DNA of 54,835 nucleotides from an uncultured Nitrososphaerota archaeon (GCA_964618805.1 CAZUBM010000013.1:1-54835); one strand, 5' to 3'; positions 7,148 to 35,281 are shown, numbered from the stretch's first letter. Notes: generated by a model not told the origin, from the letters alone. Numbers and translations: made by a program.

Positions 7148-8251
7148 ATGGCCAAAATAACGATATCTGTAATAAAAGCCGATATAGGGAGTTTGGCTGG
7201 GCATCATGTTGTTCCAGATCAATTGTTGGAGGTCGCGAGAACCTCATTAACGGAGGCCAAGAGAAAAAGGAATATTGTAGACTTTTACGTGACTTCAGTA
7301 GGAGACGATCTACAACTTATCATGACGCACAAGAAGGGAGAGAATTCTCCAGATATACACGGTCTTGCCTGGGAGATCTTTAAAAAAGCAACAGAAGTCG
7401 CAAAAGAGCTTGGGCTCTATGGTGCTGGCCAAGATCTCCTTTCTGATGCCTTTTCTGGTAACCTTAGGGGAATGGGACCAGGGTTTGCTGAGATAGAGAT
7501 AGAAGAAAGACCTTCAGAGCCCTTTGTCGTTTTCATGGCCGATAAAACGGAACCAGGCGCTTTCAACCTTCCAATGTTCAAGATATTTGCCGATCCATTC
7601 AATACAGCAGGTCTAGTTATTTCACCGAGGCTTCACGAAGGCTTTATCTTTGAAATTCTGGATGTCCGTGAAGGAAAAGCGGTTGAATTATCGAGTCCCG
7701 AGGAAATGTACGATATCCTTGCCCTAATAGGAACTCCTGGAAGGTATATCGTGAGGAGAGTCTATACTAAAAGGGAGAAGGAAGTTGCAGCAGCCGTCAG
7801 CACTACCAGGCTAAGCCTGATAGCCGGAAGGTATGTAGGTAAAGACGATCCGGTTGCCATTGTAAGGGCCCAAAGTAAATTCCCTGCATTAGGAGAAATC
7901 TTAGAGCCCTTTGCAATGTCCCATTTGGTTGCAGGTTGGATGAGAGGATCGCATCATGGTCCTTTGATGCCTGTCTCGGTTAAAGATGCGAGACCAAGCA
8001 GATTTGATGGACCTCCAAGGGTTGTAGGGCTAGGATTCAATGTTAAAAACGGTAAGTTGATAGGGCCAAGTGATTTGCTTGCAGATGTTTCTTTTGATAG
8101 AGCAAGAGCGATTGCAAATGAAATCGCTGACTATCTTAGAAAGCATGGTCCATTCATGCCTCACAGGCTAGGGCCTGATGAGATGGAGTATACCACACTC
8201 CCAGATGTTTTGGAAAAGCTAAAGGACAGATTCAAGAAAATTGAAGCATGA
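7148..8251 (+). CDS. fbp: Bifunctional fructose-1,6-bisphosphate aldolase/phosphatase (class V)
   Basis: SVIKADIG, GDD, LYGAGQDLL, GNLRGMGPG, DKTEPGAFN, YVGKDDP, GWMRGSH, EMEYT. Confidence 0.97.
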   Translation: MAKITISVIKADIGSLAGHHVVPDQLLEVARTSLTEAKRKRNIVDFYVTSVGDDLQLIMTHKKGENSPDIHGLAWEIFKKATEVAKELGLYGAGQDLLSDAFSGNLRGMGPGFAEIEIEERPSEPFVVFMADKTEPGAFNLPMFKIFADPFNTAGLVISPRLHEGFIFEILDVREGKAVELSSPEEMYDILALIGTPGRYIVRRVYTKREKEVAAAVSTTRLSLIAGRYVGKDDPVAIVRAQSKFPALGEILEPFAMSHLVAGWMRGSHHGPLMPVSVKDARPSRFDGPPRVVGLGFNVKNGKLIGPSDLLADVSFDRARAIANEIADYLRKHGPFMPHRLGPDEMEYTTLPDVLEKLKDRFKKIEA

Positions 8252-8328: not shown

Positions 8329-10050
8329 CTAGAATTCAATTTTGAACTTTGATATATGACCTAACACATCCGAAAGAGTTCTAGCTTTTAAAACATCTGT
8401 CATGAGCCTCGTAGCTTCCTCCCTGCTTATGGACCGTATTATTTTCTTAGCCCTTGGAATTAAGGAAGGGCTCATACTAAACTCATCTAGACCCATTCCT
8501 ACAAGCAAAGGAATGGCCTTGGGGTCGGATGCCATCTCTCCGCACATTCCAACCTCTTTTCCAGCTCTATGGGCTTCATCTATTATCTTATGAATTATTC
8601 TCAGCATCGCCGGATGAAATGGATTATAAAGTCCTGAGACACTTGCATTCCCTCTATCAGCGGCCATTACGTACTGAGTTAAGTCATTTGTTCCTATACT
8701 AAAGAAATCAACTTCTTCAGCAAGGACATCGACACTTAGGGCTGATGCAGGAGTTTCAATCATAGTACCTACCTTAATCTCTTTAAATGGTATTCCTTCA
8801 GATTCTAATTCATCCATCGTTTCTTTCAACAATTCCTTAGCTCTAATGATTTCCTCTATCGTCGTAACCATCGGAAACATCACCATGAAGTTACTCTTTC
8901 TTCTAGCCCTCAAGATCGCCTTTAACTGAACCTTCATGATGCTAGGTTTGTCTAATGTAAGCCTAATACCTCTCCATCCTAAAAAGGGGTTTGCCTCCTC
9001 AGGCATCCTCATGTAAGGAAGGGGCTTATCACATCCTACGTCTAAGGTCCTTACGATGATGGGTTTATCCTCCATCAGCTCCCCTATTTTGAGGAAAATT
9101 TCAAAGAGCTCTTCTTCTGTAGGCATGCTATCCCTGTCAGTATACATGAACTCCGTTCTAAGCAAGCCTATGCCCTCAGCTCCATAACGAATGGCCTCTT
9201 TTACATCTTCTAGGTTTCCAACATTCGCAAATACTTTGAACCTTGCTCCATCTGTGGTGATAGCTGGAAGCATCGCCTCTTTCGCTAGCTCTGCAAACAA
9301 GACTTCTTCCTTTTCCTTCCTTTTCTGATATTTTGATATCACATCATCTGTGGGATTGAGCAGTACTAATCCTTCATCTCCATCTACTATAATCAGTTCT
9401 CCACTCTTCACCTTTGTTGAAAAGTCTCCAGTGCCTACAACTGCTGGAATCTTAAGTGTTCTTGCAACTATTGCAACATGAGAAGTTGGGCCTCCCTTAT
9501 CTGTCACAAAAGCAAGTACCATCCTCTTATCCAGAGCGGCTATATCGCTGGGAAGGAGTTCATCAGCTACTATAACGGATTTAACAGTGAGCTTCTCTCT
9601 CTTCCTTTCCTTACCAATAAGAAAGCTTATGACGAGTTCTTTAACATCCTTAACGTCCATGACTCTTTCTCTCATATACTCGCTCTCCATGCTCCTAAAT
9701 AGGGAAATAACACGTTCTAGCACCTTTTCAACTGCAAACTCTGCACAGACTCTTTCCGTAGAGATCATCTCCTCAACAGGTTTGATGAAAGAGGATTCGT
9801 CTTCAAGCATCATGAGATGAGCCTCGTAAATCTCTGCTTCCTTTTCTCCTACTTCTCTCCTAACTCTATCTACCAGATCTGTTAGGTATTCCTTTGCTTT
9901 TTCCAAGCTTTGGTGAAATCTTCTTATCTCAGCTTCAACAAGATCGGGAGAGATTTCTTTTTTAACAATCTCCCTTCTTTCTCTCTTGAATAAGTAAGCT
10001 CTTCCTACAGCTATCCCTGGAGATGCAGCTATCCCTCTAAACTTCTCCAC
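8329..10050 (-). CDS. ptsI: PTS enzyme I (PEP-protein phosphotransferase)
   Basis: GIAASPGIAVG, GGPTSHVAI (phospho-His), GIGLLRTEF, EANPFLGWRGIR, SIGTNDLTQY, MCGEMA; 573 aa. Confidence 0.97.
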   Translation of the reverse strand: MEKFRGIAASPGIAVGRAYLFKRERREIVKKEISPDLVEAEIRRFHQSLEKAKEYLTDLVDRVRREVGEKEAEIYEAHLMMLEDESSFIKPVEEMISTERVCAEFAVEKVLERVISLFRSMESEYMRERVMDVKDVKELVISFLIGKERKREKLTVKSVIVADELLPSDIAALDKRMVLAFVTDKGGPTSHVAIVARTLKIPAVVGTGDFSTKVKSGELIIVDGDEGLVLLNPTDDVISKYQKRKEKEEVLFAELAKEAMLPAITTDGARFKVFANVGNLEDVKEAIRYGAEGIGLLRTEFMYTDRDSMPTEEELFEIFLKIGELMEDKPIIVRTLDVGCDKPLPYMRMPEEANPFLGWRGIRLTLDKPSIMKVQLKAILRARRKSNFMVMFPMVTTIEEIIRAKELLKETMDELESEGIPFKEIKVGTMIETPASALSVDVLAEEVDFFSIGTNDLTQYVMAADRGNASVSGLYNPFHPAMLRIIHKIIDEAHRAGKEVGMCGEMASDPKAIPLLVGMGLDEFSMSPSLIPRAKKIIRSISREEATRLMTDVLKARTLSDVLGHISKFKIEF

Positions 10051-10325
10051 TACTCTTCCTCCCCAAACTTGTTTTTCACTAAAGAAACGAGCGTATTAAC
10101 AGCTTCCTCAGCATCGGGTCCTTCTGCAGTGATCGTTATGATGTGGCCGCACTCTGCTCCTAGAGATAAAATACCGAGAATACTCTTAGCATCGGCCTCA
10201 TTTCCATCTTTTTTAACTTTAATTTGAGATTTAAACTTCTTGGCAGTTTGAACAAATAGAGATGCTGGTCTAGCATGTAAGCCTACCTTGTTCAAGAGTT
10301 TTACGCTTGCTTTTACCCTTGCCAT
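10050..10325 (-). CDS. ptsH: Phosphocarrier protein HPr
   Basis: GLHARPAS (His15) and DAKSILGILSLG (Ser46); likely start ATG 10325 after AGGGG; stop overlaps the ptsI start. Confidence 0.95.
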   Translation of the reverse strand: MARVKASVKLLNKVGLHARPASLFVQTAKKFKSQIKVKKDGNEADAKSILGILSLGAECGHIITITAEGPDAEEAVNTLVSLVKNKFGEEE

Positions 10326-10521
10326 ATTTAACCCCTTAGATGCCACTGCCTGAATCTGGAATTTTCTAATTAGCATTCTGCTTTTATCTTTACCCTGGAT
10401 CGTTTTATGAGTGTAAAGTACCATAGATCATACCTTAACAAATCAATATAACATCAAATGAACCTCTGTATTATCTAAACATTATATTTAGTAAAGACTT
10501 CACGGTATAGAAGGGATAGGC

Positions 10522-11187
10522 ATGAAAGTAGAACTTTCAGCTTCTATCCTCTCAGCTGACTTCTCTAAATTAGGCGAAGAGGTGAAAAAAGTAGAGAAAG
10601 CCGGAGTGGACAGAATTCATTTCGATATAATGGATGGAAACTTTGTTCCAAACCTTAGCATGGGAGTACCTATCATAAAGTCTTTGAGAAGAGTTTCATC
10701 CATCCCATTTGATGTGCATCTTATGGTACTTTCTCCAGAGAGGTTTGCGAAGATTTTCGCTAATGCTGGAGCAGACCTTATTTATTTCCATGTGGAGTCA
10801 TGCAAAAGACCTCTTCAACTCATTTCTGATTTGAAGAGCGCTGACAAAGGCGTAGGTGTAGCCCTTAACCCCTCAACTCCGTTAGATGCAATAAGTTATC
10901 TGATAGATTATGTAGATGAAATCCTAATTATGACCGTTGAACCTGGATTTGGGGGACAGAAATTCATTAGAGGAATGCTTAGGAAAATCCACGAGCTAAG
11001 GGAGAGGATTGATGAGAGGGGGCTTTCGATTAAAATTGCTGTGGATGGTGGAATTAATAGGAGCACAGCTCCTCTAGCCATTAGCTCAGGAGCATCTGTT
11101 CTAATTTGTGGTTCTGCTATTTTTTGTGAAAAAGACATTTTTATGGCTGTAAAACAACTTAAGAACTCCTTCGTGCAAAAAATATAA
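10522..11187 (+). CDS. rpe: Ribulose-phosphate 3-epimerase (Rpe/SgcE family)
   Basis: SILSADF, HFDIMDGNFVPN, DVHLM, MTVEPGFGGQ, VDGGIN. Confidence 0.95.
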   Translation: MKVELSASILSADFSKLGEEVKKVEKAGVDRIHFDIMDGNFVPNLSMGVPIIKSLRRVSSIPFDVHLMVLSPERFAKIFANAGADLIYFHVESCKRPLQLISDLKSADKGVGVALNPSTPLDAISYLIDYVDEILIMTVEPGFGGQKFIRGMLRKIHELRERIDERGLSIKIAVDGGINRSTAPLAISSGASVLICGSAIFCEKDIFMAVKQLKNSFVQKI

Positions 11188-11221
11188 AACAAAGTCCCTT
11201 CAGCTATTTTAGGGAGATACC

Positions 11222-12250
11222 TTGGCGAAGATTGAGCAAGAAATTGAGGAAATACGCAAGGTAGAACCTATTGAACTCGAAAGATTGAGATTAGATGAGA
11301 ACAAGCTGATCAGGATGCTAAGGAAGATGATGGAGATAAGAGCATTTGAAGAAAAAGTTGAGCACTTATACATATATGAGGCAGCCTTACAAGGAGCAGC
11401 CCATCTTTACTTTGGAGAGGAAGCGATAGCGGTAGGAGTATGCTCTGCTATAGGAAATGAAGGATACATATTCAGTACACATAGAGGTCATGGGCATGCT
11501 CTTGCGATAGGAATTCCTGCGAAGGAAGTAATGGCAGAATTATTTGGAAAAGTCACAGGAGTTTGTAAGGGTCTTGGAGGCTCAATGCATGTTTGTATAG
11601 ACCCTGAGAAGAAGGCTATGTGGGCTTCTGCGATAGTTGGAAGCAGCGTCCCTATAGCCGTGGGTGCTGGGTTAGCCATCAAATACATGGGTAAAAACGA
11701 AGTTTCAGTAGCCCTCTTTAGCGATGGAGCTACAAATACTGGTGCTTGGCATGAATCCATGAACCTTGCCTCATTCTGGAAATTACCTGTGATATTTGCT
11801 TGCGAAAATAACCAGTATGCCATCTCAATGCCAGCTAGAAAATCGGTAACCTGCGGCAGAGTGGCATATAGAGCAATCAGTTATGGGATTCCAGGAATGA
11901 TAGTTGACGGAAATGATGTTCTCTCTGTGTATAAGGCAACTTTAAAGGCTAAGAATAGAGCAAAGAAGGGCGAAGGCCCCACTTTAATAGAGTTCATTAC
12001 CTACAGAATGAAAGGCCACGGCGTTTACGATAAGGCGGAATATAGACCAAAAGAAGAATCAAGAAAATGGAAAGAATTTGATCCAATATTAAGGTTTTCC
12101 AAGTACCTGATAAAGTTAGGAACTACCACAGAAGAAGATATCAAGAAAATGAAAGAAGAGATCAGAGCAGAGATAGATGATGCTGTTGAATTCTCCAAAA
12201 GAAGCGATTATCCTCCTTTTGAGTTGCTTGAAGAGGTGACATACAAATGA
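11222..12250 (+). CDS. TPP-dependent acetoin/2-oxoacid dehydrogenase E1 alpha
   Basis: HLYFGEEA, STHRGHGH, GGSMH, TPP motif SDGA...ENN, TYRMKGH. Confidence 0.9.
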   Translation: MAKIEQEIEEIRKVEPIELERLRLDENKLIRMLRKMMEIRAFEEKVEHLYIYEAALQGAAHLYFGEEAIAVGVCSAIGNEGYIFSTHRGHGHALAIGIPAKEVMAELFGKVTGVCKGLGGSMHVCIDPEKKAMWASAIVGSSVPIAVGAGLAIKYMGKNEVSVALFSDGATNTGAWHESMNLASFWKLPVIFACENNQYAISMPARKSVTCGRVAYRAISYGIPGMIVDGNDVLSVYKATLKAKNRAKKGEGPTLIEFITYRMKGHGVYDKAEYRPKEESRKWKEFDPILRFSKYLIKLGTTTEEDIKKMKEEIRAEIDDAVEFSKRSDYPPFELLEEVTYK

Positions 12251-13218
12251 GAGAAATAACATATGCTGAAGCCATAAGAGAGGCCCTTAGGCAAGAAATG
12301 CACAGAGATTCTAGAGTATTTATCCTAGGAGAGGATATAGGGGCTTATGGAGGTGCTTTTAAGGTCACTAAAGGAATGTTAGAAGAATTTGGGCCAGAAA
12401 GGGTGAGAGATACTCCAATTTCAGAAGCAGCGATAGTTGGAGCTGCGATAGGAGCTGCTCTATTAGGTTTAAGGCCAATAGCCGAGATCATGTATATGGA
12501 CTTCCTTCCAATAGGAACTGAGCAATTGGTAGTACAAGCAGCTAATATGACATTAACTTCCGGTGGTAAGTTAAAGGTTCCTATCGTTGTAAGAACCCAA
12601 TATAGTCTAGGAAGGGCTCACGCATCCCAGCATTCTGAGTTTTACCCAGTATGGTACATGAATGTACCAGGTCTAAAGGTGGCCCTACCTTCAACTCCCT
12701 ATGATGCCAAAGGGATGTTGATAAGTGCTATAAGAGATGAGAACCCTGTTCTATTCATAGAGTCTGCCCTTCTATATAGAATAAAAGGACCTGTCCCAGA
12801 GGAACCCTATGAAGTACCCTTAGGGACTGCTGACATCAAAAAAGAGGGAGACGATGTAACAATAGTAGCAGTCTCTAGAATGGTAATAGAAGCCCTCAAA
12901 GCAGCAGAAGAACTTCAGAAGGAAGGAATAAGTGTTGAAGTTGTTGATCCTAGAACATTAAATCCTCTTGACAGGGATACAATAGTTAATTCGGTTAAGA
13001 AAACTGGAAGAGCTGTAGTAGCTGCTGATGATCACAAAACTGGAGGAGTTACAGCAGAACTTGTAGCAACCATAGTAGAAGGGGCTTTTGATTATTTAGA
13101 TGCACCTATTAAGAGAATAGCATCTCCAGATATTCCTATACCATTTTCTCCTCCATTAGAAAGGAAATACATGAAGTGGAGCAAGGACATAGTAGAAGCT
13201 GTCAAAGAAATAACGTAA
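12247..13218 (+). CDS. TPP-dependent dehydrogenase E1 beta
   Basis: GEDIGAYGG, DTPISEAAIVG, AEIMYMDF, SQHS, DPRTLNPLD. Confidence 0.92.
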   Translation: MREITYAEAIREALRQEMHRDSRVFILGEDIGAYGGAFKVTKGMLEEFGPERVRDTPISEAAIVGAAIGAALLGLRPIAEIMYMDFLPIGTEQLVVQAANMTLTSGGKLKVPIVVRTQYSLGRAHASQHSEFYPVWYMNVPGLKVALPSTPYDAKGMLISAIRDENPVLFIESALLYRIKGPVPEEPYEVPLGTADIKKEGDDVTIVAVSRMVIEALKAAEELQKEGISVEVVDPRTLNPLDRDTIVNSVKKTGRAVVAADDHKTGGVTAELVATIVEGAFDYLDAPIKRIASPDIPIPFSPPLERKYMKWSKDIVEAVKEIT

Positions 13219-13230
13219 GGGTGATTATAA

Positions 13231-14328
13231 TTGAGAAAGGTTATCCTTCCAAGAATAGATCCGGGAATGGAGTCAGGAAAAATTGTTGAATGGCTGAAGA
13301 AAGAAGGAGAAGAAGTAAAAGAAGGCGAAGCTTTAGTTAGAGTTGAGGGAGAAAAGACAATATTTACTGTAGAGGCACCAGAAAGCGGCATATTAGGAAG
13401 AATACTAGCGAGAGAAGGAGAAGAAGTCCCTGTTACAGAACCCATAGCAATAATAACCTCTCCTGGGGAAGAAATAACCGAAGAGGTTATTCCAAAGGAG
13501 AGGATAAGAGCTTCTCCTGCAGCTAAGAGATTGGCGGAAAAATATGGGGTAGATCTCTCGAGAATAAAGGGAACAGGTCCTGGTGGAAGGATTATAAAAG
13601 AAGATATGCTTAGGGCTATTGAAGAGATCAAAGAGAAGAAAGCGGAGATTAAGATAAGAAAAATTATCAAAATAGAAGGAATGAGAAGAACTATAGCAAG
13701 AAGACTTTCAGAAAGTCACAGAACCATTCCTGCCGTGGCAATAGTAATGGAAGTTGATATGAGTAAAGCTCTTGACCTGAAGAGAAAGTTGAAAGAAAAA
13801 CATCAGAACGTTTCTATAACTGCTATAATTGTTAAGGCAACTGCGAAAGCATTAGAGCAAGACCTAATGTTTAACTCATCTGTAAAAGAGGATAAGATAG
13901 TAGTGTATGATGAAATAAACATTGGAGTAGCAGTAAGCCTGCCAGACGGTCTGGTTGTGCCTGTGATTAGAAATGCTAATAAGAAAACACTAATGGAGAT
14001 AAGCAGAGAAATTGAGACTCTTTCGAATAAAGCCAGAAAAGAGGGATTATCGCCTGAAGATGTAGCAGGAGGAACTTTCACAGTATCTAATCTTGGAACT
14101 AAAGATGTTGAGTTTTTCACTCCAATAATAAATCCTCCGCAGGCAGCCATACTTGGAGTAGGAACTATCTCAAGTAAGCCCATATCAATTGAAGGAAAAG
14201 TGGAGATAAGACCTATGATGTACATTTCCCTAGTCTTTGATCATAGAGTTGCAGATGGAGTTCCAGCCTCAGAATTTCTTAGAAAAATAAAGAAGAACCT
14301 AGAGAACCCACAAATCCTATTAGAGTAA
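13231..14328 (+). CDS. Dihydrolipoamide acyltransferase E2
   Basis: Lipoyl domain (VEGEKT), subunit-binding domain RASPAAKRLA..GTGPGGRI, catalytic DHRVADG. Confidence 0.92.
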   Translation: MRKVILPRIDPGMESGKIVEWLKKEGEEVKEGEALVRVEGEKTIFTVEAPESGILGRILAREGEEVPVTEPIAIITSPGEEITEEVIPKERIRASPAAKRLAEKYGVDLSRIKGTGPGGRIIKEDMLRAIEEIKEKKAEIKIRKIIKIEGMRRTIARRLSESHRTIPAVAIVMEVDMSKALDLKRKLKEKHQNVSITAIIVKATAKALEQDLMFNSSVKEDKIVVYDEINIGVAVSLPDGLVVPVIRNANKKTLMEISREIETLSNKARKEGLSPEDVAGGTFTVSNLGTKDVEFFTPIINPPQAAILGVGTISSKPISIEGKVEIRPMMYISLVFDHRVADGVPASEFLRKIKKNLENPQILLE

Positions 14329-14329
14329 A

Positions 14330-14749
14330 TTAACCTGTAAGAGAGATATGAAATCTCTTGGTTAATGGTATCCTTATTCCAGGGAGGAAGAAGAGCTTAG
14401 CCTCATAATACGCTCTAAGTATAAGATCCATATCATGAACCGGTTTTATGTCTAAGATTACACTTTGATTCCTAGAACTTCGTGCTTTAACAAATCCAAA
14501 AACGATTATGAAGTTTCCTAGGTTTTCTCCAGAATCTGAAGAGTATATACTTATCCTAGCTGAAACATAGAGGGGATAGAAACCATTGTTTTTGAACGAA
14601 AAAGTAAAATTAACCCCTCTCGCATCTTGATGAACTTCTCTTGCTTCTACTATCTGAAGATTTGAGTGCGCACTATATACAGAGGAAATCCAGATTATGA
14701 CTAAAAAAAGGATAGCTAAGAAAAAGAAAGCCTTCTTTGGAATTCTCAT
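14330..14749 (-). CDS. Hypothetical membrane-anchored protein, downstream of EIIC
   Basis: N-terminal TM followed by a beta-rich domain; 40 bp after the EIIC stop. Confidence 0.6.
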   Translation of the reverse strand: MRIPKKAFFFLAILFLVIIWISSVYSAHSNLQIVEAREVHQDARGVNFTFSFKNNGFYPLYVSARISIYSSDSGENLGNFIIVFGFVKARSSRNQSVILDIKPVHDMDLILRAYYEAKLFFLPGIRIPLTKRFHISLTG

Positions 14750-14789: not shown

Positions 14790-16067
14790 TTACTTCTTAC
14801 CGAAGAGATAGTAGAAGGGAAGGAAGAGAACAAATGTTAAGGGATTCGTCCCGTCACAGATGCTTGAAATGTAAGTAGCGCCTTTGGCGGCTTCTGGTAT
14901 GGTGAAACCTGCGGCAACTGCTGCATCAGTGAAATATGGGGCTAAGAAACCTCCTATGTACATAGCCGGAATCAAAACAATCGCTCCTATTATGAAGGCA
15001 TGAACCACGTTACCTCTTACGATGGGGACGAGCATGCAGACCATGAATGGAAGGACTGCAAGATCTGCTAGTGGAAGGAACCTGTTTCCAGGTAAGATGA
15101 ATGCCCAAAGGAGGGTTACTGGTACTAACAAAAGAGCGGCAGCTATGGCCGTTGGGTGTCCTATAGCTATGGCAGAATCAAGGCCTATATACATCTCTCT
15201 GCCACCGTATCTTTCCTCCAAGATCTTCTTTCCTGCCTCGGATATTGGTACCAACCCTTCCATAAGTATAGCAACTACTTTTGGCATTAAGTACATTACG
15301 GCAGCTAAGGTAACCCCTGTCTTTAGAATTCCAGCTAAATCACTTCCTGCTGCTATAGCAAGCGCTAGACCTATGATTAAACCTAAAACCATGGGCTCCC
15401 CTAAGACACCGAACTTTTCTCTTATAGCCTCAGGATCAGCTTTTAAGTCTCTTAAAGCAGGTATAGCATCAATTACTTTCTTTATTGGGATTCCTATTGG
15501 AACATAAGCTGCAGAGAATCCATGAGGAAGGGATATTCCAGGAATGTTAAGCATTTCTTGCACTCCTTTTGCTGTCCAATCTCCAAGTTTGAATACTATG
15601 ATAGAATTAATTATGGCAGCGATAACACCTAAAGGAACACTACCTGTAGCCATTGTGACAAGGGATCCCGTAAAGGCGAAATGCCAATAATTCCAGAAAT
15701 CGATGTCAAGTGTCTTAGTTAGCTTCAGTGCTAGCATTATTATATTAACTATAAAACAGACTGGTATTGTTAATCCACCGACAATTGTCCCAAAAGCAAT
15801 AGCGGCAGCAGAGGGCCAGCCCACATCTATAACCGTGAGTTCGATTCCAGTTCTTTTAACCATTGCCTGAGCTACATCCGTCATCGTTCCCCAGAGCAGC
15901 CCTATAACTAGATTAATGCCCACAAAGCCGCATGCTATCGTCAAAGCAGCCCTAAAAGCTCTTCCCTTTGGGACTTTGAATGCAAGTGCGACGAAGAAGA
16001 GGATTATAGGTATAACAACAGTGGCTCCGAGGTTGAGGAACCATTGAATTGCTTCTACTATTCCCAT
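14790..16067 (-). CDS. PTS EIIC, galactitol (GatC/SgcC) family
   Basis: IDVGWP, TLDIDFWNYWH, IGLDSA, LPGNRFLPLADL; multi-TM; start after GGTGA. Confidence 0.93.
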   Translation of the reverse strand: MGIVEAIQWFLNLGATVVIPIILFFVALAFKVPKGRAFRAALTIACGFVGINLVIGLLWGTMTDVAQAMVKRTGIELTVIDVGWPSAAAIAFGTIVGGLTIPVCFIVNIIMLALKLTKTLDIDFWNYWHFAFTGSLVTMATGSVPLGVIAAIINSIIVFKLGDWTAKGVQEMLNIPGISLPHGFSAAYVPIGIPIKKVIDAIPALRDLKADPEAIREKFGVLGEPMVLGLIIGLALAIAAGSDLAGILKTGVTLAAVMYLMPKVVAILMEGLVPISEAGKKILEERYGGREMYIGLDSAIAIGHPTAIAAALLLVPVTLLWAFILPGNRFLPLADLAVLPFMVCMLVPIVRGNVVHAFIIGAIVLIPAMYIGGFLAPYFTDAAVAAGFTIPEAAKGATYISSICDGTNPLTFVLFLPFYYLFGKK

Positions 16068-16223
16068 ATATTTCACCTATAACAAGTGACTAGTTAACTT
16101 TAGGACTTCGTCTTTTTCTTAATAAAGCTTAGCTATTTTTCAACCAAAAAATATCGTAGAACTCTTGTCAGCCACTTCAAGCTCTACCTAAAGAAAGTTT
16201 GATCCACCACCGAATCAAAAAAG

Positions 16224-16538
16224 TCACTTCTTAACTCCAGTAATCTCGAGTATCTTATCTATAGTCTCTTTCTCTCCAATTCCTGTTAAGAATGGAACTC
16301 CATTCACTACTGGTACTCCCTTGGCAGCTCCTTCAGAGACAGGAGTAGTAGCCACGATTACATGAGGCTGAAATACTATTACTTTACCTGAAACTTCAGA
16401 TGCTTTACACTGAACGACGGTTAGGGGGACACCTAATTTCTTAAAGACCTCTTTGAGTTTGGTTGCCACAACCGTAGCGGTTGCAATAGCAGTACCACAA
16501 GCAACCAAAATCCTAATCGATTCTACAGCGCGAGCCAT
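16224..16538 (-). CDS. PTS EIIB, galactitol (GatB/SgcB) family
   Basis: ILVACGTAIATAT phospho-Cys loop; GVPFLTGIG. Confidence 0.9.
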   Translation of the reverse strand: MARAVESIRILVACGTAIATATVVATKLKEVFKKLGVPLTVVQCKASEVSGKVIVFQPHVIVATTPVSEGAAKGVPVVNGVPFLTGIGEKETIDKILEITGVKK

Positions 16539-16846: not shown

Positions 16847-17290
16847 ATGTCAGAACTTCCAGAGAATTTAAAATTTAAGATAGAAGCTAGATGGGATAAG
16901 AAAACTGGAGCTAATATTAGATTTGAGAGCGATAGATCTCTAATAATAGATACTCCTACTGAATTTGGTGGACGTGGAACAGCTTTATGCCCCGATGAGC
17001 TCTTCTTAACTTCTATAGCTGGATGTGTTCTCACAACATTTCTTTGGTTCACAAGAAAGAGAGGAGTTAAGATAAATGATATGCGGCTAGATGCTGAGTC
17101 TGAAATAGAATTAATTAAAGGAGCATATTCATTTAAGGCGATAAGGATTACAATTGAGATATCTGCTCCAGAGGAATATGCTGATAAGGCCAAAACGTGT
17201 TTAGATCTAGCAATTAGGTATTGTCACATATCTAGAGGCATCGAGCATTGTATTCCGATAGATGTAACTGGTAAGGTGATAGTTAGCTAG
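16847..17290 (+). CDS. OsmC/Ohr family protein
   Basis: DTPTEFGG..CPDELFLTSIAGC and RYCHIS with the conserved Cys pair. Confidence 0.88.
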   Translation: MSELPENLKFKIEARWDKKTGANIRFESDRSLIIDTPTEFGGRGTALCPDELFLTSIAGCVLTTFLWFTRKRGVKINDMRLDAESEIELIKGAYSFKAIRITIEISAPEEYADKAKTCLDLAIRYCHISRGIEHCIPIDVTGKVIVS

Positions 17291-17647
17291 CTATTTTCCA
17301 GGAGGAACTGCTTTTGCTGGAATTACGCAAATAAATGTAAGATCTTCTTCTCCTTTCTGTCTAAAAGAGTGCTTAGTATTGGGAGGTATAAATATGAAGG
17401 TCCCTGGTTTAATTTCATACTCTTTCCCATCTAATGTAACAAGGCCGCTGCCTGATAATACAACAACCCCGTGTTCCCAATCATGCGAATCTGGAGGAGA
17501 GAGACCTCCTTTTTCTATCCTAAAGAGTCTAATGGCAAAATTTAAGGATCCATGCCTAGGCGATATCAACCACTTTCTGTATACTCCAATTGCATTGCTT
17601 ACAACCTCTTCTTCTACTTTATCGATGCTCCCTATGAAAGCTTTCAT
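17291..17647 (-). CDS. Cupin domain protein
   Basis: SHDWEH..VLSGSG and IFIPPNTKHSF motifs; first metal His appears to be Asp. Confidence 0.85.
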   Translation of the reverse strand: MKAFIGSIDKVEEEVVSNAIGVYRKWLISPRHGSLNFAIRLFRIEKGGLSPPDSHDWEHGVVVLSGSGLVTLDGKEYEIKPGTFIFIPPNTKHSFRQKGEEDLTFICVIPAKAVPPGK

Positions 17648-17791: not shown

Positions 17792-18247
17792 ATGGATGAT
17801 ATGGAGATAATAGTGGTAATGAGCCTTGAAGCGGACAGTTCGAAAGAGATAATAAAAGAGTTAGGCTCAATTCTCTTGAAGAGAGGATTTGTTAAACCCA
17901 CCTTTATCTCAGCTACAATTGAACGTGAGAAGAGCGTACCTACAGGCCTCGAATTAATGGGCGGGACAAATGTTGCTTTACCTCACGCAGGAGTAGAACA
18001 TGTAATAAAACCAGCTTTAGCTATGGCAAAATTGAGAAAAGAAGTAAAATTTAGGAAAATGGACGATCCTGATACCGAGATTCCAGTAAAATTAGTCTTC
18101 ATGCCGGCTATCAAAGATCCTCACTCTTATATAATTACCCTTCAGAAACTAGTTGATGTTTTCAAAAATCCTGAGTTGATAAGAGAGATCATGGAAAGTG
18201 ACGATCCAGAAGAAATAAGGAAATTGCTAGCATCTCACTTGGCTTAA
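17792..18247 (+). CDS. PTS EIIA, Gat/Fru/Ntr fold
   Basis: IEREKSVPTGL, VALPHA (phospho-His), VKFRKM. Confidence 0.9.
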   Translation: MDDMEIIVVMSLEADSSKEIIKELGSILLKRGFVKPTFISATIEREKSVPTGLELMGGTNVALPHAGVEHVIKPALAMAKLRKEVKFRKMDDPDTEIPVKLVFMPAIKDPHSYIITLQKLVDVFKNPELIREIMESDDPEEIRKLLASHLA

Positions 18248-18759: not shown

Positions 18760-19707
18760 TTAATATACTATATTTTCAAAACCAGAAGTCAAATGAACTA
18801 TCGATGGAAGGAGCGCTTTTGATCTTTTATCTATCTCCCTTCTGTCTAATACCGATATTCCTTTGAATTTTGTTGAGAAAGAGGCAGCAGCTGCTGCAAA
18901 GGCTGATGATACCCTTAGAGTTCTACCTTCGGCTATACAGATAGATAAGACGGCCAGGAAAATATCTCCAGCCCCTACATCGTCTACAACTTTATTAGAT
19001 TTGAACGCGGGCACATAAAGGATCTCACTTCTATCTGCTACGATAGCTCCTCTTTCTCCCATCGTTACAGAGACTATCAGGGCTCCAGCATCTAATAACA
19101 TTCTTATTCCTTCTTTTAGATCGGTTGTGCCAGTGGCTGCAATGCATTCTTCCCTGCTTAAGTGCAATATATCGCACAGGGAACTCGCTTTTAAGGCATC
19201 TTCACTCTTAGAAATTGAAATTTCACCTTTAGAGCTAAATTTTCTCACAAAACCTTGCAAATCAAGGGCAATCATCCCTTTTACCATTCCTCTAATTTCT
19301 CCAACAAGCCTTAAGCTTATTTCGCCTCCTACTGGGCCTAAAAAGACTAAATCATCTTCCATTAAATCTCTGGGAATATCGTGTACGTGTAAAGCAGGTG
19401 CTGATGCTGGCCTTGAGAAAATTCTCCTGGAACCAGATATTTCGATCCTGAATCTTGTGCTAGGTCCTTTAATTCTCTTCACATGAGAGATGTCAACCTT
19501 TAGCGAAGAAAGTCTTTGGAGGAAATTCATTGGCATGTCATCTCCGACAACAGATATGACTCTGGCCTTCCAATCCATTGAAATAGCGGCCACCGAACCA
19601 TAAGCAACTGAACCACCTAGCCTCTCCCTGAGCCTTCTACCTTCATAATATATCTCATCGATTACCAAATGACCTAGTCCGGAAAATCTTTTGTTTTTAA
19701 CCTTCAT
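18760..19707 (-). CDS. PfkB family carbohydrate kinase
   Basis: GHLVID, GGSVAY, VTMGERGA, DDVGAGDIF; start ATG after GGTGA. Confidence 0.9.
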   Translation of the reverse strand: MKVKNKRFSGLGHLVIDEIYYEGRRLRERLGGSVAYGSVAAISMDWKARVISVVGDDMPMNFLQRLSSLKVDISHVKRIKGPSTRFRIEISGSRRIFSRPASAPALHVHDIPRDLMEDDLVFLGPVGGEISLRLVGEIRGMVKGMIALDLQGFVRKFSSKGEISISKSEDALKASSLCDILHLSREECIAATGTTDLKEGIRMLLDAGALIVSVTMGERGAIVADRSEILYVPAFKSNKVVDDVGAGDIFLAVLSICIAEGRTLRVSSAFAAAAASFSTKFKGISVLDRREIDKRSKALLPSIVHLTSGFENIVY

Positions 19708-19832
19708 CAAATCACCTGACAATATTATCAAGGAAGCCAAAACACATAGATCCTCAGTTTACAAATGAAGGATTACTTATGAAAGAAGTTCTTTTATTAA
19801 GAAGGGAATAGCACGTTTGATAAAAATTACTC

Positions 19833-20768
19833 TCACAGAATGTCCTTTAGGTCAGGCCATCTCCTGATAAGTTTGTTCAATGTTGGGAGAAACCTTGCGC
19901 CTTCTCCTTCGCATTTATACCCTGCGAGGGCATTTCCTAATTTACAAGCATCTAGAGGGCCAAGACCTCTGGAAATCCCTAGCAAGAAACCAGCATTAAA
20001 TGCGTCCCCAGCACCGGTCGTATCCAGGACCTTTACCTTCATGGCTGGAACTAGCCTGATCCCTTCCTCCCATACGACCAAACATCCATCCTTACCCGCT
20101 TTAACTACTAATATTTCAGCACCTAATACACTTCTAAGATTTTCAAGCTCTTTATTTCCATACCCCCGACATAAGGATTTCGCTTCCATCTCGTTTGATA
20201 AACAATAAGTTATCAGCCCGCTCAGCTTGAGAACTTTCTCCATTCCCTGAAATGCAATCCCTTCAATGTCAAGTGAGGTGGGAACTCCCGAATTCTTTGC
20301 AGTTCTAAGAATGGAAATAGCATGAGGGAACTCTTCAGGATCCATCAATGAGTAGCCAGATACATGGACAAGTGAAGCCTCAGAGGCTGCCTTTAGAACC
20401 TCCTTTGTAGCTTGAAACTTTTTGTTTGCACCTCTGCTTCCTAAGATAGTTCTTTCTCCCTCTTTATCTACGAAAATTAGCATAAAACCAGTCTTGTTAT
20501 CCTCCTTCACCTGAATTAGGCTGGAGTCAACGCCTTCCCTTTTAATCTCTTCAAGAACAAAATCTCCCCAAGGGTCTCTTCCTACAGCTCCAGCAAGTTT
20601 GACTTCTGCATTTAATCTTGCCAGAGCAACTGCGATGTTTGCGCCAACCCCACCACCACTTATCTTTACTTTTTCTGTTACAGCTATGCTCCCTCTTTTA
20701 GGATACGTCTCTCCATACATGAGAATATCAACATCTATATCCCCTAGAACTAAGAAGAACCCGCTCAG
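19833..20768 (-). CDS. PfkB family kinase (ribokinase-like), probable CTG start
   Basis: LVLGDIDVD upstream of the first ATG, GGGVGANIA, GERT, DTTGAGDAFNAG. Confidence 0.9.
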   Translation of the reverse strand: MSGFFLVLGDIDVDILMYGETYPKRGSIAVTEKVKISGGGVGANIAVALARLNAEVKLAGAVGRDPWGDFVLEEIKREGVDSSLIQVKEDNKTGFMLIFVDKEGERTILGSRGANKKFQATKEVLKAASEASLVHVSGYSLMDPEEFPHAISILRTAKNSGVPTSLDIEGIAFQGMEKVLKLSGLITYCLSNEMEAKSLCRGYGNKELENLRSVLGAEILVVKAGKDGCLVVWEEGIRLVPAMKVKVLDTTGAGDAFNAGFLLGISRGLGPLDACKLGNALAGYKCEGEGARFLPTLNKLIRRWPDLKDIL

Positions 20769-20772
20769 AAAT

Positions 20773-21594
20773 CTATTCCTCCCTTCTTATCCTTTTGACT
20801 TCTTCCATTAGCCTCTTTACTCTTTCTAGTTCTACTGGATTCTGTGTAATACCGCCTACCTTAAAATACGTGCCAACGATTGCTCCATCAGCATATTTGA
20901 AGAAGTCTCTAACGTTTGATGGGTTGACTCCACTCCCAACGAGCAGAGGCTTTCCAGGTAAGAATTCCCTAACCCTTTTAACCTTCTCAACGCTCGGAGC
21001 CTTACCTGTCATGGTTCCAGTCACTATGAGGGCATCAGCCATGTAAAAGTCAAGCCATTCAGCATGCTTCTCCAAATCTATGCCTGGGAACATGACAGCG
21101 TGCTTTTTTGTTACATCTGCGAATAGCTTTATGTCATCTGCCTGCAAGAACTTCCTCATTCTAAGCATCTTTGCACCCACACCGTGATCGAACTCTCCAG
21201 TGTCCCATACTAATGCACCAGCCATCAAACACACCCTTATGAACTTTGCTCCTGAAGCGACAGCGATGGCAAGCTCACCCCTCCATCCATTGTGTATTAT
21301 GTTCACGCCAACTGGAACTGAAGATTCTTTAACAATTTCTCTAGTTGCTACGGCCATTGCAGCTACTTCCTCTGGAGGGATATTTTCTCCGACAAAATAA
21401 GGGAGGTCCCACATGTTCTCAACAATAAGACCATCAACCCCTCCTTCCTGCAATAATCTTGCGTCCTTAAGGGCGAACTCTATTATGGAGTCAATGCTCT
21501 CCCCTTCATAAGCTACTGATCCCGGTAGAGGCGGCAAGTGTACCATACCAATGATGGCTTTTTCAACCCCGAAGAGTTCTGAAACGGACTTCAT
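20773..21594 (-). CDS. BtpA/SgcQ family TIM-barrel protein
   Basis: IIGMVHLPPLPGS, ENMWDLPY, GVN, KKHA, VTGTMTG, GSGV, IVGT; start MKSV. Confidence 0.92.
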   Translation of the reverse strand: MKSVSELFGVEKAIIGMVHLPPLPGSVAYEGESIDSIIEFALKDARLLQEGGVDGLIVENMWDLPYFVGENIPPEEVAAMAVATREIVKESSVPVGVNIIHNGWRGELAIAVASGAKFIRVCLMAGALVWDTGEFDHGVGAKMLRMRKFLQADDIKLFADVTKKHAVMFPGIDLEKHAEWLDFYMADALIVTGTMTGKAPSVEKVKRVREFLPGKPLLVGSGVNPSNVRDFFKYADGAIVGTYFKVGGITQNPVELERVKRLMEEVKRIRREE

Positions 21595-21774
21595 CTTCCT
21601 TGCGTAAAACCTACGAGCCCATTCAACTTCGAATTCCAAAGTCCAACCCCTCAGCATTCCTCAATTACAGCTGAAAAAGTTTAGGTTCTTGTCGTTCCGA
21701 TGTTTTAACGATAAGGAGCCTAATTTCGGAAATTGGACATCGGATTTTTATTAAGGATCTTTAGAGCATGGCTG

Positions 21775-22677
21775 ATGAAGTTCGGTGTTATGCTCCCCCA
21801 CAGGTGGGTTTATGCATCCAAAGAGAGCATAGTGGAGTTTGCTAAGCTAGCCGAGGAGCTGGGCTTTACCTCCATCTGGGTCACTGATCACATAATTGTC
21901 CCAGCAGATAGGACAGAGAGAGGCCACATCTTCTACGAGCCACTGATAACACTAGCCTGCGTTGGAGTTCAGACGAGTTTGGATTTAGGAACGTGCGTCC
22001 TCATGCTTCCTGCAAGAAATCCAATTCTTTTGGCCAAACAGGCAGCAACTTTGGACCTTCTCAGCCAAGGAAGGCTTATCCTTGGTGTGGGAGCTGGGTG
22101 GATTAGAGAAGAGATCGAAGCCATGGGTTCGAGTTTTAAATTAAGAGGGAGAATGGAGGACGAGGCAATAGAACTTTTGAAAACGTTATGGAGTAAAAAG
22201 GGCCCGATAAACTTTAATGGGATGTTCTGGAAGTTTGAGAACATGATATTTGAGCCAAAGCCTAGCAGAAAGATACCTATATGGGTTGGAGGGAAGAAGA
22301 AACCCTCAATCATAAGGGCTGCAAAGCTGGGTAATGGATGGATTCCGTGGGCCATATCCCCTGAAGAACTTGAGAATGGGGTAAGGCTCATCGAAAAAAT
22401 ATCGAGGAAAAAGATAGAGGTAGCGATTGTGACGCCTGTAAACATGGTTAGAGGATCACCAAACACATATGGTGGATCTTTAGGAGAAAGACATTGGTTT
22501 CTAGCTGGATCCACTGAGGAGGTGTTGAGAGGAGTTGAAAGGCTTGTTGAAGCGGGATGCGACTATCTTATATGCTCATTCAGGGATGTGAGGCTTTTCA
22601 GGGATGATGATACCTCGGTTATGGTCAAGCAGGCTAAGGCATTCTCTAGAGGCATCATGCCATCGTTTACCAGTTAG
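21775..22677 (+). CDS. LLM-class (luciferase-like) oxidoreductase, probably F420-dependent
   Basis: MKFGV, WVTDHI, RNPILLAKQAATLDLLSQGRLILGVGAGW, IWVGG. Confidence 0.85.
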   Translation: MKFGVMLPHRWVYASKESIVEFAKLAEELGFTSIWVTDHIIVPADRTERGHIFYEPLITLACVGVQTSLDLGTCVLMLPARNPILLAKQAATLDLLSQGRLILGVGAGWIREEIEAMGSSFKLRGRMEDEAIELLKTLWSKKGPINFNGMFWKFENMIFEPKPSRKIPIWVGGKKKPSIIRAAKLGNGWIPWAISPEELENGVRLIEKISRKKIEVAIVTPVNMVRGSPNTYGGSLGERHWFLAGSTEEVLRGVERLVEAGCDYLICSFRDVRLFRDDDTSVMVKQAKAFSRGIMPSFTS

Positions 22678-26995: not shown

Positions 26996-27688
26996 TTAAT
27001 CCCTAGACGCTTTTAAAACCCCTTCAGCCAACTCCATTAGCTTTTTTCTTGGATCTGGGTGTTTTGCTACCGCAGAAGCAAGAAGAACACCATCTGTTTC
27101 AAGTTCGATTGCTTTTCTAACATCCTCTCCACTTGAGATGCCAGCACCGCATAATATTCTTACATCCGGTGCAAATGATCTGACCAATTTGACAGTTTCG
27201 GTGATCGTTTCCGGCTTTGCCTTAGATACCGAAATACCAGTTCCAATGAGTTCTGGAGGCTCCATCGCAACAGATGTTGGCTTAAGCATGGCAACTGAAA
27301 GGCTTTCTCTTGGTGTAGCTGCACAAATTATGGAAATTAAACCTTCTTCCACGAGCTTTTGGTTTATCCACGCAATATCACTTAGTCTTAACCTCTTTTC
27401 ACTGTGATTTATTATGCTTCCAATTATCTTATATTGCTTAAGCTGTAAGGGGCTGATATATCCTGTAAATGCCCCATATGGAACTGAATCTACGTGCTGA
27501 ACAAAAACGGGGATCTCTAACTCTCTTGCCAATATAGCAGCATCTAGCGCATTAGGCGCAACTCCTATAAGAACACCTTTCTCTTTCCAAACTAATTCAG
27601 CAGCTCTTCCTATTTCAAGCGCTCTTTTACCTACTGACTGCTCATATAATTTCAGGTTCACTAAGATTCTGGGTAGCCTATCTTTCAT
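26996..27688 (-). CDS. tpiA: Archaeal-type triosephosphate isomerase
   Basis: VNLKLY, QHVD, NHSE, EPPELIGTG, CGAGI, GVLLAS; likely start MKDRL. Confidence 0.95.
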   Translation of the reverse strand: MKDRLPRILVNLKLYEQSVGKRALEIGRAAELVWKEKGVLIGVAPNALDAAILARELEIPVFVQHVDSVPYGAFTGYISPLQLKQYKIIGSIINHSEKRLRLSDIAWINQKLVEEGLISIICAATPRESLSVAMLKPTSVAMEPPELIGTGISVSKAKPETITETVKLVRSFAPDVRILCGAGISSGEDVRKAIELETDGVLLASAVAKHPDPRKKLMELAEGVLKASRD

Positions 27689-27889
27689 TTCAATCAATTT
27701 CGTGGATCCATAATAAAAGAATTTCTTGGTGAGGCTCAATACAAGTCTCTTCCATAAGAGATATGTTACCAGTGGACTTTCGAAGATCCTATATATCTCT
27801 CGATTAATTTTGTGGAAGATGAGCAAGTGTTTTCTGCTCGTAAAAGTATGGATTTTTGAATAAATGTTTCCATAGAACTTGGGATATCT

Positions 27890-34985: not shown

Positions 34986-35281
34986 CTCTTATCCCCTTCA
35001 AAGCCCATATTAGGAATATTTTCTTCTATTTAACATTCCACTTTCTATTGCTATTATTTTATCACACGAATATCAGTGCACTTTCTGACTCTAGGCCTAG
35101 CAGCCTTCATGGAATGTGAGTCTTTAGCTTCTGGATATAACAAATAGGGCATTGGTCTAATAGAATCTACAGGGGTTCTGGCTTGGAAATAAGGTTGAAT
35201 TACAACCGATCAAGGATAATTTAACATCAATATCCTCAGATAGGAGATAACATTTTATCTTACCTCTTTAGAATTAAAAAT

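Follow-up and report, generated by a model that had tools for sequence, protein, structure and literature searches.

A recurrent linkage between a sugar phosphotransferase system and an E1/E2 complex in an uncultured Nitrososphaerota archaeon, and its possible role in ketose phosphate cleavage

Introduction

Why should a gene for ribulose-phosphate 3-epimerase (Rpe) head an operon that otherwise encodes the E1 and E2 subunits of a 2-oxoacid-dehydrogenase-like complex, and why should this operon lie beside genes for a phosphoenolpyruvate (PEP)-dependent phosphotransferase system (PTS)? Such an operon, rpe-E1α-E1β-E2, is found at positions 10522-14328 of a stretch of 54,835 nucleotides from an uncultured Nitrososphaerota archaeon (GCA_964618805.1 CAZUBM010000013.1:1-54835), and this whole stretch is called the window throughout. 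A preliminary description, made from the sequence alone, had proposed that the thiamine pyrophosphate (TPP)-dependent complex might cleave xylulose-5-phosphate (Xu5P), the product of Rpe, into glycolyl-CoA and glyceraldehyde-3-phosphate (GAP). Most archaeal 2-oxoacid-dehydrogenase-like complexes are, like the sgc-type PTS, without an assigned substrate, and the recurrent pairing described here provides a testable hypothesis for both of them. The protein families involved are all known; the novelty lies in the way they are combined, in a conserved manner, and in the pathway implied by this. We tentatively favor the view that a ketose phosphate derived from the PTS, most likely Xu5P, is split by the complex into GAP and a C2-acyl-CoA, although we would stop short of calling this probable.

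Results

The window is archaeal, as it encodes a family-B DNA polymerase (PolB), a RadA/Rad51-like protein, an XPF/ERCC4 nuclease, an aldehyde ferredoxin oxidoreductase (AFOR), and a bifunctional fructose-1,6-bisphosphate (FBP) aldolase/phosphatase, and it constitutes contig C13 of an assembly of 2.18 Mb that is 93.7% complete. The genes rpe, E1α, E1β, and E2 are all located on the plus strand and form a single tight operon, in which 34 bases separate rpe from E1α, E1α and E1β overlap by 4 bases, and 12 bases lie between E1β and E2. As the preliminary description had stated, rpe is the first gene of this operon and diverges from ptsH and ptsI; open reading frames (ORFs), families, and coordinates all agree with that statement. 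Rpe (10522-11187, PF00834 with 246 bits) exceeds the equivalog cut-off of TIGR01163 (261.1 versus 212.6), whereas the AlsE model yields only 187 versus a cut-off of 271. The TPP-binding subunit E1α (11222-12250, PF00676 with 286 bits) carries the motif SDG-X26-ENN, which replaces the GDG form. E1β (12247-13218) matches Transket_pyr (PF02779, 140 bits) and Transketolase_C (PF02780, 139 bits) as well as NF006667 (377.8 versus a cut-off of 321). The translation of the E2 acyltransferase gene (13231-14328; PF00198 with 275, PF02817 with 62, and PF00364 with 55 bits) contains EGEK and comprises a lipoyl, a peripheral subunit-binding, and a catalytic domain, the last of these with DHRVADG.

On the minus strand upstream of the operon, ptsI (8329-10050) codes for PTS enzyme I (EI) with three PEP-utilizer domains (TIGR01417, 619 bits versus a cut-off of 341.7) and ptsH (10050-10424) for HPr (PF00381 with 109 bits; TIGR01003 with 97 versus 47.9). 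The HPr domain covers residues 38-117 of the 124-residue ptsH ORF, following an N-terminal extension of about 37 residues, and the true start codon of ptsH may lie further downstream than called. Two extra HPr paralogues, with 68% and 66% identity to the ptsH product, are encoded in the window (34713-34997, minus strand) and on another contig (G000:C2:9062-9340). The divergent intergenic region of 97 bp between ptsH and rpe (10425-10521) contains the AT-rich CATTATATTTAG some 30-40 bases ahead of the rpe ATG, which might be a candidate archaeal TATA element, by inference only. Downstream of the operon, the minus strand encodes a small protein (orf139, 14330-14749) whose N-terminus is hydrophobic and which has no Pfam or NCBIfam match, a PTS EIIC of the Gat/Sgc type (14790-16076; PF03611 with 285 bits, TIGR00827 with 455 bits, under the cut-off of 542), and a PTS IIB (16224-16538, PF02302 with 43 bits), and an EIIA-2 type PTS IIA is encoded on the plus strand (17792-18247, PF00359 with 109 bits). 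According to tblastn searches, rpe, E2, and EIIC each occur in single copy in this genome.

A search of genome contigs with E1α yielded 80 loci (loci and genomes are cited by L and G numbers). Rpe adjoins E1 in three of them (L006, L007, and L079), EIIC adjoins in two (L006 and L079), and EI and/or HPr in four (L005, L006, L007, and L050); in about 30 loci, labelled Bathyarchaeia/Nitrososphaeria, E1α-E1β-E2 stand alone. Among 43 genomes sampled from the phylum of the window, EIIC matches occur in 10, namely in 5/5 of its own genus, in 4/5 of its sister genus, and in G007. Strong Rpe matches are found in 9/43, all of them in these two genera, the 21 other matches having at most 25.5 bits and belonging to ORFs of 280-448 residues, and a window-type E1β (79-100% identity) occurs in 7/43, again in these two genera exclusively. 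The whole arrangement, consisting of EI and HPr, then Rpe, E1α, E1β, and E2, then orf139, EIIC, IIB, and IIA, is present in three sister-genus genomes with long contigs (L099, L100, and L101), and the order HPr (minus), Rpe-E1α-E1β-E2, orf139 (minus), EIIC (minus), IIB, and IIA also in L006 and L007. Homologues of orf139 with 38-63% identity occupy the same position downstream of EIIC in L006, L007, L099-L101, L089, and L151. Two close relatives, L004 and L005, retain E1α-E1β-E2-OsmC without rpe or EIIC; in L005, HPr-EI still diverges from this group, after which come IIA, two PfkB genes, and BtpA.

A second archaeal lineage is represented by L079, labelled Desulfurococcaceae, where a minus-strand EIIC is followed by the E2 catalytic domain, E1α, E1β, a free lipoyl protein of 80 residues, IIB, and Rpe. 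Among 301 genomes sampled from the same class, 74 have E1α matches, but at least 65% identity is reached only in G043, G213, G093, and G219, and all four share this arrangement (L079 and L137-L139), with IIA next and with HPr and EI where the contig permits. The next relatives (48-51% identity) have clusters of E1α, E1β, LD, and E2 without a PTS. In both archaeal lineages, rpe accompanies PTS-E1/E2.

A metagenome search with an EIIC alignment gave 80 loci. E1/E2 adjoins EIIC in 22 of these, and in 15 of the 42 that have at least 5 kb on one side; many of the remaining loci are on short contigs. The 22 loci comprise one of window type (L151), five of the Desulfurococcaceae-like type (the full loci L174, L180, L191, and L211 and the fragment L179), and 16 of a new type, in which E1α, E1β, (LD), E2, IIA, IIB, and EIIC, an ORF of about 140 residues, and often HPr and EI follow each other on one strand. 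New-type loci are taken to be bacterial because a SorC-family regulator precedes the operon in 5/5 loci annotated in detail and a RelA/SpoT gene is found nearby in L172. The near homologues of one new-type E1α bear in NCBI the names of Chloroflexi, Anaerolineae, Anaerolineaceae, and Pelolinea metagenome-assembled genomes. The family-less ORF after EIIC has an N-terminal MIxAFxxSxxGSxG (L172:11390-11827, L186:11452-11862, L168:11377-11820, L196:9184-9588, and L162:11894-12307); it was considered as a counterpart of orf139, but on comparison the two are not homologous. Bacteria normally carry a housekeeping rpe; a variant of the new type, L196, adds an Rpe together with a member of the OMPdecase/hexulose-6-phosphate synthase (HPS) family. 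Directly upstream of E1α-E1β-E2 in L050 and L183, and only there among the loci examined, an oxidoreductase of the DRL family (DXR-II-like) is encoded. In L050, from Chelativorans, the genes ahead of E1α, E1β, and E2 code for a PTS of the glucitol type, HPr fused to EI, a SorC regulator, a phosphatase of the HAD type, and the DRL oxidoreductase. The PTS of L183 is of the Gat type, and in both loci the DRL genes are accompanied by GutM and a SorC regulator. Such DRL-E1/E2-PTS loci may hint at what the uncharacterized DLO branches do within the range of the DRL family, and the accessory genes of L196, L050, and L183 fit a pentulose-phosphate theme.

In a tree of concatenated E1α and E1β sequences (65 rows, IQ-TREE quick, LG+G4), the three PTS-linked E1 sets are separate. 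The Desulfurococcaceae-like set is sister (support 100) to the PTS-free E1α-E1β-LD-E2 loci of related Thermoprotei, the bacterial PTS-linked set and Chelativorans are nested in a bacterial group, and the window set branches beside a Bathyarchaeia locus and that bacterial group. Uniting the window set with either of the others is rejected by the approximately unbiased (AU) test (p-AU of 2.5e-6 and 7.2e-6), for groups that were named after the tree had been seen and that involve long branches. The EIIC tree (92 rows) has another shape. EIICs of the two archaeal sets are sisters (support 98), and a single clade (support 94) unites them with 14 of the 16 EIICs that adjoin E1/E2 in bacteria. The sister clade of these EIICs (support 99) stems from loci with transketolase, Zn-dependent dehydrogenases of the polyol-phosphate type, RpiB, and phosphofructokinase (PFK); transketolase is split in L216, full-length in L207, and inferred from matches at the same position for L217, L218, and L222. 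Because the E1 sets separate and the EIICs form one clade, a single PTS subfamily has been joined to E1/E2 of three origins, and its nearest PTS kin use transketolase.

Within the genome of the window no transketolase, XFP, transaldolase, or RpiA was detected at 93.7% completeness, the only PF00456 match being one of 25 bits on a fused E1αβ encoded on another contig. In the window itself, PF00456 and PF09364 have zero matches among the scanned ORFs, in agreement with the earlier remark that neither transketolase nor phosphoketolase is encoded there. The genome possesses RpiB beside an HPS (TIGR03128, 241 versus a cut-off of 200), a type III RuBisCO (TIGR03326, 632 versus 497), and a lipoate-protein ligase-like gene. 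Four strong POR_N matches (214-247 bits), in addition to two weak ones, indicate 2-oxoacid:ferredoxin oxidoreductases of the POR type, and pyruvate oxidation is already covered by these four. No E3 gene is found in the window and none above cut-off in the genome, whose completeness of 93.7% leaves this absence unproven. The top three E3 candidates score 177 (167 in the genome search), 131, and 109 on TIGR01350, with a cut-off of 408.8; their best scores are as CoA-disulfide reductase or NADH oxidase, which they resemble. A flavoprotein of this CoA-disulfide reductase/NADH oxidase kind is encoded on contig C10.

Fifteen genomes were compared, eight from the window clade and four with the Desulfurococcaceae-like PTS, i.e., 12 with PTS-E1/E2, and three PTS-free relatives; owing to kinship, these counts reflect few independent events. 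LpdA lies below cut-off in 7/8 window-clade genomes (G040 passes), and above it in 3/4 genomes with the Desulfurococcaceae-like PTS (the fourth scores 397) and in 3/3 PTS-free relatives. Transketolase is found in 0/4 of the genomes with the Desulfurococcaceae-like PTS versus 3/3 of their PTS-free relatives, XFP_N matches in 0/12 PTS-E1/E2 genomes, and type III RuBisCO in 12/12 of these versus 0/3 PTS-free relatives.

The subunits encoded in the operon have the features of an α2β2-type E1 complex, i.e., a TPP motif in E1α, the Transket_pyr and C-terminal domains with a catalytic His in E1β, and a three-domain E2. The His of QHS in E1β aligns with the catalytic His of ELHSD in Geobacillus E1β. 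Closest among solved structures are the E1α of human pyruvate dehydrogenase (PDH; 205 bits) and the E1β of Geobacillus PDH (295 bits). E1α scores 349.5 on TIGR03182 and E2 310.8 on TIGR01349, both under the respective PDH equivalog cut-offs of 393.85 and 445. With PDH E1 subunits as top solved relatives, the label acetoin-dehydrogenase-like given to the complex in the preliminary description holds only loosely. The AcoC-type E2 model NF011457 gives 80.7 versus a cut-off of 307, in a match confined to the lipoyl end of E2, which falls short of an AcoC/AcoL-type assignment, and E1α yields 36.5 bits on the transketolase model NF004559, with a cut-off of 488.

Two motifs to which the preliminary description had drawn attention do exist in the translations, FSDGATNTG in E1α and ASQHSEF in E1β, but a survey of 65-97 E1 sequences speaks against reading either as a functional signal. 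SDG is present in 7/7 members of the window E1 clade, including L004 and L005, whose loci lack rpe and EIIC, and is absent from every other aligned sequence, those of the other two PTS-linked clades among them. In E1β, QHS is invariant, whereas the next position varies freely within the family (Q, E, N, G, S, or A), and SQHSE is an ordinary QHS[Q/E/N] variant. As judged from this survey, SDG is a synapomorphy of the window E1 clade, and neither motif informs on the substrate. Two further candidates were discarded: the sole column common to both archaeal PTS-linked E1 sets, considered as a PTS-specific convergent substitution, also occurs in the sister set that has no PTS, and at E1α position 86 the T/H site is inconsistent as a PTS marker inside the window clade.

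Two other E1-like sequences are encoded in the genome. One is the fused E1αβ of 668 residues with canonical GDG and AAQHSQ (G000:C6:83219-85225, L084:7220-9226), which is followed by a short-chain dehydrogenase/reductase (SDR; L084:9223-9990) that reaches 267.4 versus a cut-off of 270 with the model for meso-2,3-butanediol dehydrogenase, with no E2 nearby. This looks like an acetoin/butanediol pair, which would need to borrow the only E2 of the genome. The other, an E1α-like stretch (G000:C2:67905-68848, within L234), consists of two pieces with 54% and then 44% identity in different frames and is possibly a frameshifted or decayed copy.

Further genes flank the PTS and the operon. The FBP aldolase/phosphatase (7148-8251, plus strand; NF041126, 602 versus a cut-off of 520) is a neighbor and at most a candidate member of the module. 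Between the genes for IIB and IIA, an OsmC-family protein (16847-17290, plus strand; PF02566, 60 bits) has a candidate catalytic Cys pair (AGC, residue 60; YCH, residue 126), and a small cupin (17291-17647, minus strand; PF07883, 67 bits) is possibly a sugar-phosphate isomerase; tblastn detects cupin homologues in some bacterial PTS-E1/E2 loci (L162, L168, L187, L193, and L215). Beyond IIA, the minus strand encodes two PfkB-family sugar or sugar-phosphate kinases (18760-19740 and 19833-20720; PF00294 with 88 and 186 bits, below any NCBIfam equivalog) and a TIM-barrel protein of the BtpA/SgcQ family (20773-21657; TIGR00259, 241 versus a cut-off of 153). They are followed by an F420-type luciferase-like oxidoreductase (21733-22677). 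Homologues of the latter with 23-37% identity lie within a few kb of E1/E2 in L011, L012, L017, L021, L025-L027, L029, L033, L039, L082, and L145; this recurrence near Bathyarchaeia-type E1/E2 may be due to chance, the family being large. Triosephosphate isomerase (TIM), FBP aldolase/phosphatase, and a GOR-like enzyme had been mentioned as possible processors of the cleavage products; TIM (26996-27826, minus strand), the FBP aldolase/phosphatase, and a ferredoxin-AFOR pair (27890-30055) are present. This AFOR is preceded by a poly-ferredoxin of 134 residues and lies beside the divergent TIM gene, and tblastn finds about 13 more AFOR-like places genome-wide.

Discussion

That three separate E1 lineages are joined to EIICs of one clade, and that the nearest kin of this PTS use transketolase, is the strongest argument for a role of E1/E2 in the catabolism of the PTS substrate. 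This recurrent linkage, together with rpe in both archaeal lineages, supports the view that E1/E2 belongs to sugar-phosphate catabolism rather than being a stray housekeeping PDH; to this extent the original interpretation stands, although its argument from motifs does not. Because the pairing concerns one EIIC subfamily, rpe is present in both archaeal versions, the usual outlets for pentose phosphates were not found in this genome, and transketolase takes the corresponding slot in the sister clade, E1/E2 seems to act on the PTS product or on its epimer. That E1 acts on a ketose phosphate, and on which one, is inferred, and the C2 unit may leave either as glycolyl-CoA or as acetyl-CoA.

A pathway of this kind might operate as follows. 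The Gat/Sgc-type PTS would import and phosphorylate a pentulose-type sugar or polyol, and Rpe would set the configuration at C3 by converting ribulose-5-phosphate (Ru5P) to Xu5P. The TPP of E1 would then attack the C2 carbonyl of the ketose phosphate, as acetoin dehydrogenase and transketolase do with an α-ketol, GAP would leave, and the C2 unit would stay on TPP, from which it would be transferred to the lipoyl arm of E2 and on to CoA. In one version, the C2 unit would exit as glycolyl-CoA in an oxidative cycle, with the lipoamide being re-oxidized by OsmC or another flavoprotein. In the other version, a phosphoketolase-like dehydration would yield acetyl-CoA, the overall reaction being redox-neutral and E3 unneeded. 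The missing LpdA of the window clade would fit such a scheme, because the redox-neutral version needs no E3, or else an unconventional re-oxidant might be used. In its strict form, the proposal is that of a CoA-linked ketolase: Rpe would make Xu5P out of the PTS product, E1 would split this Xu5P into GAP and a C2 unit bound to TPP, and E2 would pass the C2 unit to CoA. We regard this strict form as rather unlikely.

Several observations weigh against a ketose phosphate as substrate, and some of them favor an ordinary 2-oxoacid dehydrogenase acting on pyruvate or a branched-chain 2-oxoacid. The latter would be located beside a PTS and regulated together with it since sugar glycolysis yields pyruvate, and Rpe would link a pentulose phosphate to the pool of Ru5P and ribose-5-phosphate (R5P). 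We consider this unlikely, yet it is the explanation that survives best besides cleavage of a ketose phosphate. PDH E1 subunits are the top solved relatives, and E1β exceeds the cut-off of the NCBI PDH E1β subfamily. Catalytic His, TPP motif, and DHRxxDG of E2 are intact, PTS-specific changes of the active site were not found, and among the substitutions common to both archaeal PTS-linked E1 sets there is no gained Arg, Lys, or His nor any other change suggestive of a phosphate site. The nearest relatives, L004 and L005, keep the operon without rpe or EIIC, and their E1 is 77%/76% (α) and 86-87% (β) identical to that of the window. Recruitment from three E1 clades suggests a common ancestral activity and is explained more simply if that activity, e.g., on pyruvate, suffices. 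Rpe could merely feed the Ru5P/R5P pool, as RuBisCO in 12/12 PTS-E1/E2 genomes and HPS and RpiB in the genome of the window offer it another role. Where at least 5 kb are available on both sides of EIIC, E1/E2 is found beside it in only 7/21 loci, about a third. An oxidative cycle needs an E3, and LpdA stays below cut-off in nearly all window-clade genomes. The bacterial core operon is without a polyol-phosphate dehydrogenase, so that the PTS product itself would have to be the substrate of E1. Finally, two sister-genus genomes, G008 and G009, and only these within the window clade, do possess a split transketolase, which is encoded within a cluster for aromatic amino acids. In G009 (C4, L231:860-4547) it is clustered with 3-deoxy-D-arabino-heptulosonate-7-phosphate (DAHP) synthase and 3-dehydroquinate synthase, and the N-terminal half of this transketolase forms a fusion with an activator-like segment of the TK0271 family.

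An ordinary 2-oxoacid dehydrogenase leaves other observations without explanation. Any PTS makes pyruvate, yet the linkage is limited to one EIIC subfamily in which it has arisen or been replaced three times. In the genome of the window four strong 2-oxoacid:ferredoxin oxidoreductases are already at hand, E1α and E2 fall under the PDH equivalog cut-offs, and LpdA was not found. In the bacterial PTS operons, which stand under a sugar-phosphate regulator of the SorC type, E1/E2 come first.

A further and improbable alternative is that the complex cleaves a phosphorylated 1-deoxy-ketose as a methyl ketol, in the manner of acetoin. 1-Deoxy-D-xylulose-5-phosphate would give acetyl-CoA and GAP, or phospho-4,5-dihydroxy-2,3-pentanedione (phospho-DPD), i.e., phosphorylated autoinducer-2 (AI-2), would give acetyl-CoA and 3-phosphoglycerate. 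What enters through the PTS would be either the 1-deoxy sugar in free form or a polyol with a methyl branch, the latter being converted by a DRL-type enzyme. The Joint Genome Institute (JGI) labels this E1 family as pyruvate/acetoin dehydrogenase, and SorC-family regulators include LsrR, a sensor of phospho-AI-2. With both products being central metabolites, the minimal bacterial operon of PTS and E1/E2 would be enough. DRL oxidoreductases (PF21135), which a passage of one article equates with the DXR-II/DLO family (PMC3847144), stand directly upstream of E1/E2 as described above, but in just two examined loci. Also in favor of this alternative, mutations in aceE (PDH E1) are reported to rescue E. 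coli strains that lack the first step of the isoprenoid pathway (PMC3424233). On the other hand, a 1-deoxy-ketose assigns no clear role to Rpe, which is nevertheless encoded in both archaeal clusters, and no biochemical precedent was found in the literature searched. To our knowledge, archaea do not use the methylerythritol phosphate (MEP) pathway, which counts against this alternative as well.

For the window clade only, it is very improbable that the complex serves lipoyl-dependent peroxide detoxification, in which E1/E2 would reduce the lipoyl arm and an OsmC peroxidase would re-oxidize it in place of E3: OsmC does adjoin E2 or the PTS in all clade loci with enough flank (L004, L005, L006, L099-L101, L151, L153, L089, and L091), has two candidate catalytic Cys residues in a clade where 7/8 genomes have LpdA under cut-off, and belongs to the Ohr/OsmC proteins whose biological reductants are, according to a passage of PMC5384416, lipoyl groups of 2-oxoacid dehydrogenase complex proteins, but tblastn with the window OsmC finds none in the other two PTS-linked lineages, the linkage to PTS and Rpe would be unexplained, and peroxide supply would limit the flux. 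A peroxidase role of OsmC can coexist with any of the other explanations.

Cleavage of a ketose phosphate by E1/E2, if it holds true, would offer anaerobic archaea and Anaerolineae a third way, in addition to transketolase and phosphoketolase, of leading pentose phosphate into central metabolism, and pentoses would have a new entry point where a pentose phosphate pathway is lacking. As glycolyl-CoA or acetyl-CoA would arise from a new natural source, pathway engineers might also find it useful. If the complex is a plain PDH, the finding reduces to an unusual operon arrangement. In the literature searched there is no description of a PTS-linked E1/E2 or of a natural cleavage of Xu5P to acyl-CoA; the articles found that combine glycolyl-CoA with Xu5P appear to deal with synthetic pathways or to be reviews.

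Among the known systems, the PDH and branched-chain 2-oxoacid dehydrogenase (BCKDH) complexes (human and Geobacillus PDH, Thermus BCKDH, and the 2-oxoacid dehydrogenase complex OADHC of Thermoplasma) agree with the operon in all three Pfam architectures as well as in catalytic His, TPP motif, and DHRxxDG of E2. Unlike in these, E1α and E2 encoded in the window fall under equivalog cut-offs, LpdA was not found, Rpe is encoded in the operon, a PTS adjoins it, and POR-type enzymes are present. The acetoin dehydrogenase system (AcoA/AcoB/AcoC/AcoL) likewise consists of an E1α/E1β heterotetramer type and a lipoyl E2, and its chemistry, the C2-C3 cleavage of an α-ketol with transfer of the C2 unit to CoA and release of an aldehyde, is the one proposed here. 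It differs in that an AcoL-type E3 was not found in our case, the AcoC model matches at the lipoyl end only, PTS and Rpe are linked to the complex, and the proposed substrate is phosphorylated. The fused E1αβ beside the BudC-like SDR on contig C6 looks like a better candidate for acetoin than the operon.

Gat-family PTS clusters for pentitols and hexitols (L207 and L216) resemble the PTS-E1/E2 loci in that, after related EIIC, IIB, and IIA genes, a TPP enzyme from the transketolase/E1 superfamily is encoded, with RpiB or Rpe-type genes nearby. The Listeria pentitol operon is such a Gat-family PTS cluster with transketolase. These clusters have polyol-phosphate dehydrogenases of their own and a true transketolase, which uses an acceptor aldose and makes no CoA ester, whereas the PTS-E1/E2 loci have E1 and a lipoyl E2 and no Zn-dependent alcohol dehydrogenase. 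The gene set of the window matches that of E. coli sgcABCEQX with regard to the Gat-type IIA, IIB, and IIC, the Rpe homologue SgcE, and BtpA/SgcQ, but the E. coli cluster is without E1/E2, and among the scanned window ORFs there is no M42 peptidase resembling SgcX. For this E. coli cluster, an article from 2026 states that neither substrate nor function is known (PMC13343008). A complete sgc-type cluster is encoded elsewhere in the same-genus genome G042 (L102, G042:C3:34500-54400) and comprises IIA, a second EIIC (EIIC'), Rpe', an M42 peptidase, BtpA', and IIB'. At a distance of about 3 kb from this cluster there is a type III RuBisCO gene, which adjoins purA, but genes for a major facilitator superfamily (MFS) protein and an ATP-binding cassette (ABC) permease intervene, and this proximity is probably coincidental. 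Phosphoketolase (Xfp), finally, is one large protein that uses phosphate as acceptor without any lipoyl or CoA step; its TPP-dependent cleavage of Xu5P or fructose-6-phosphate to GAP or erythrose-4-phosphate and an activated C2 unit would make it a functional analogue of the step proposed for the E1/E2 complex.

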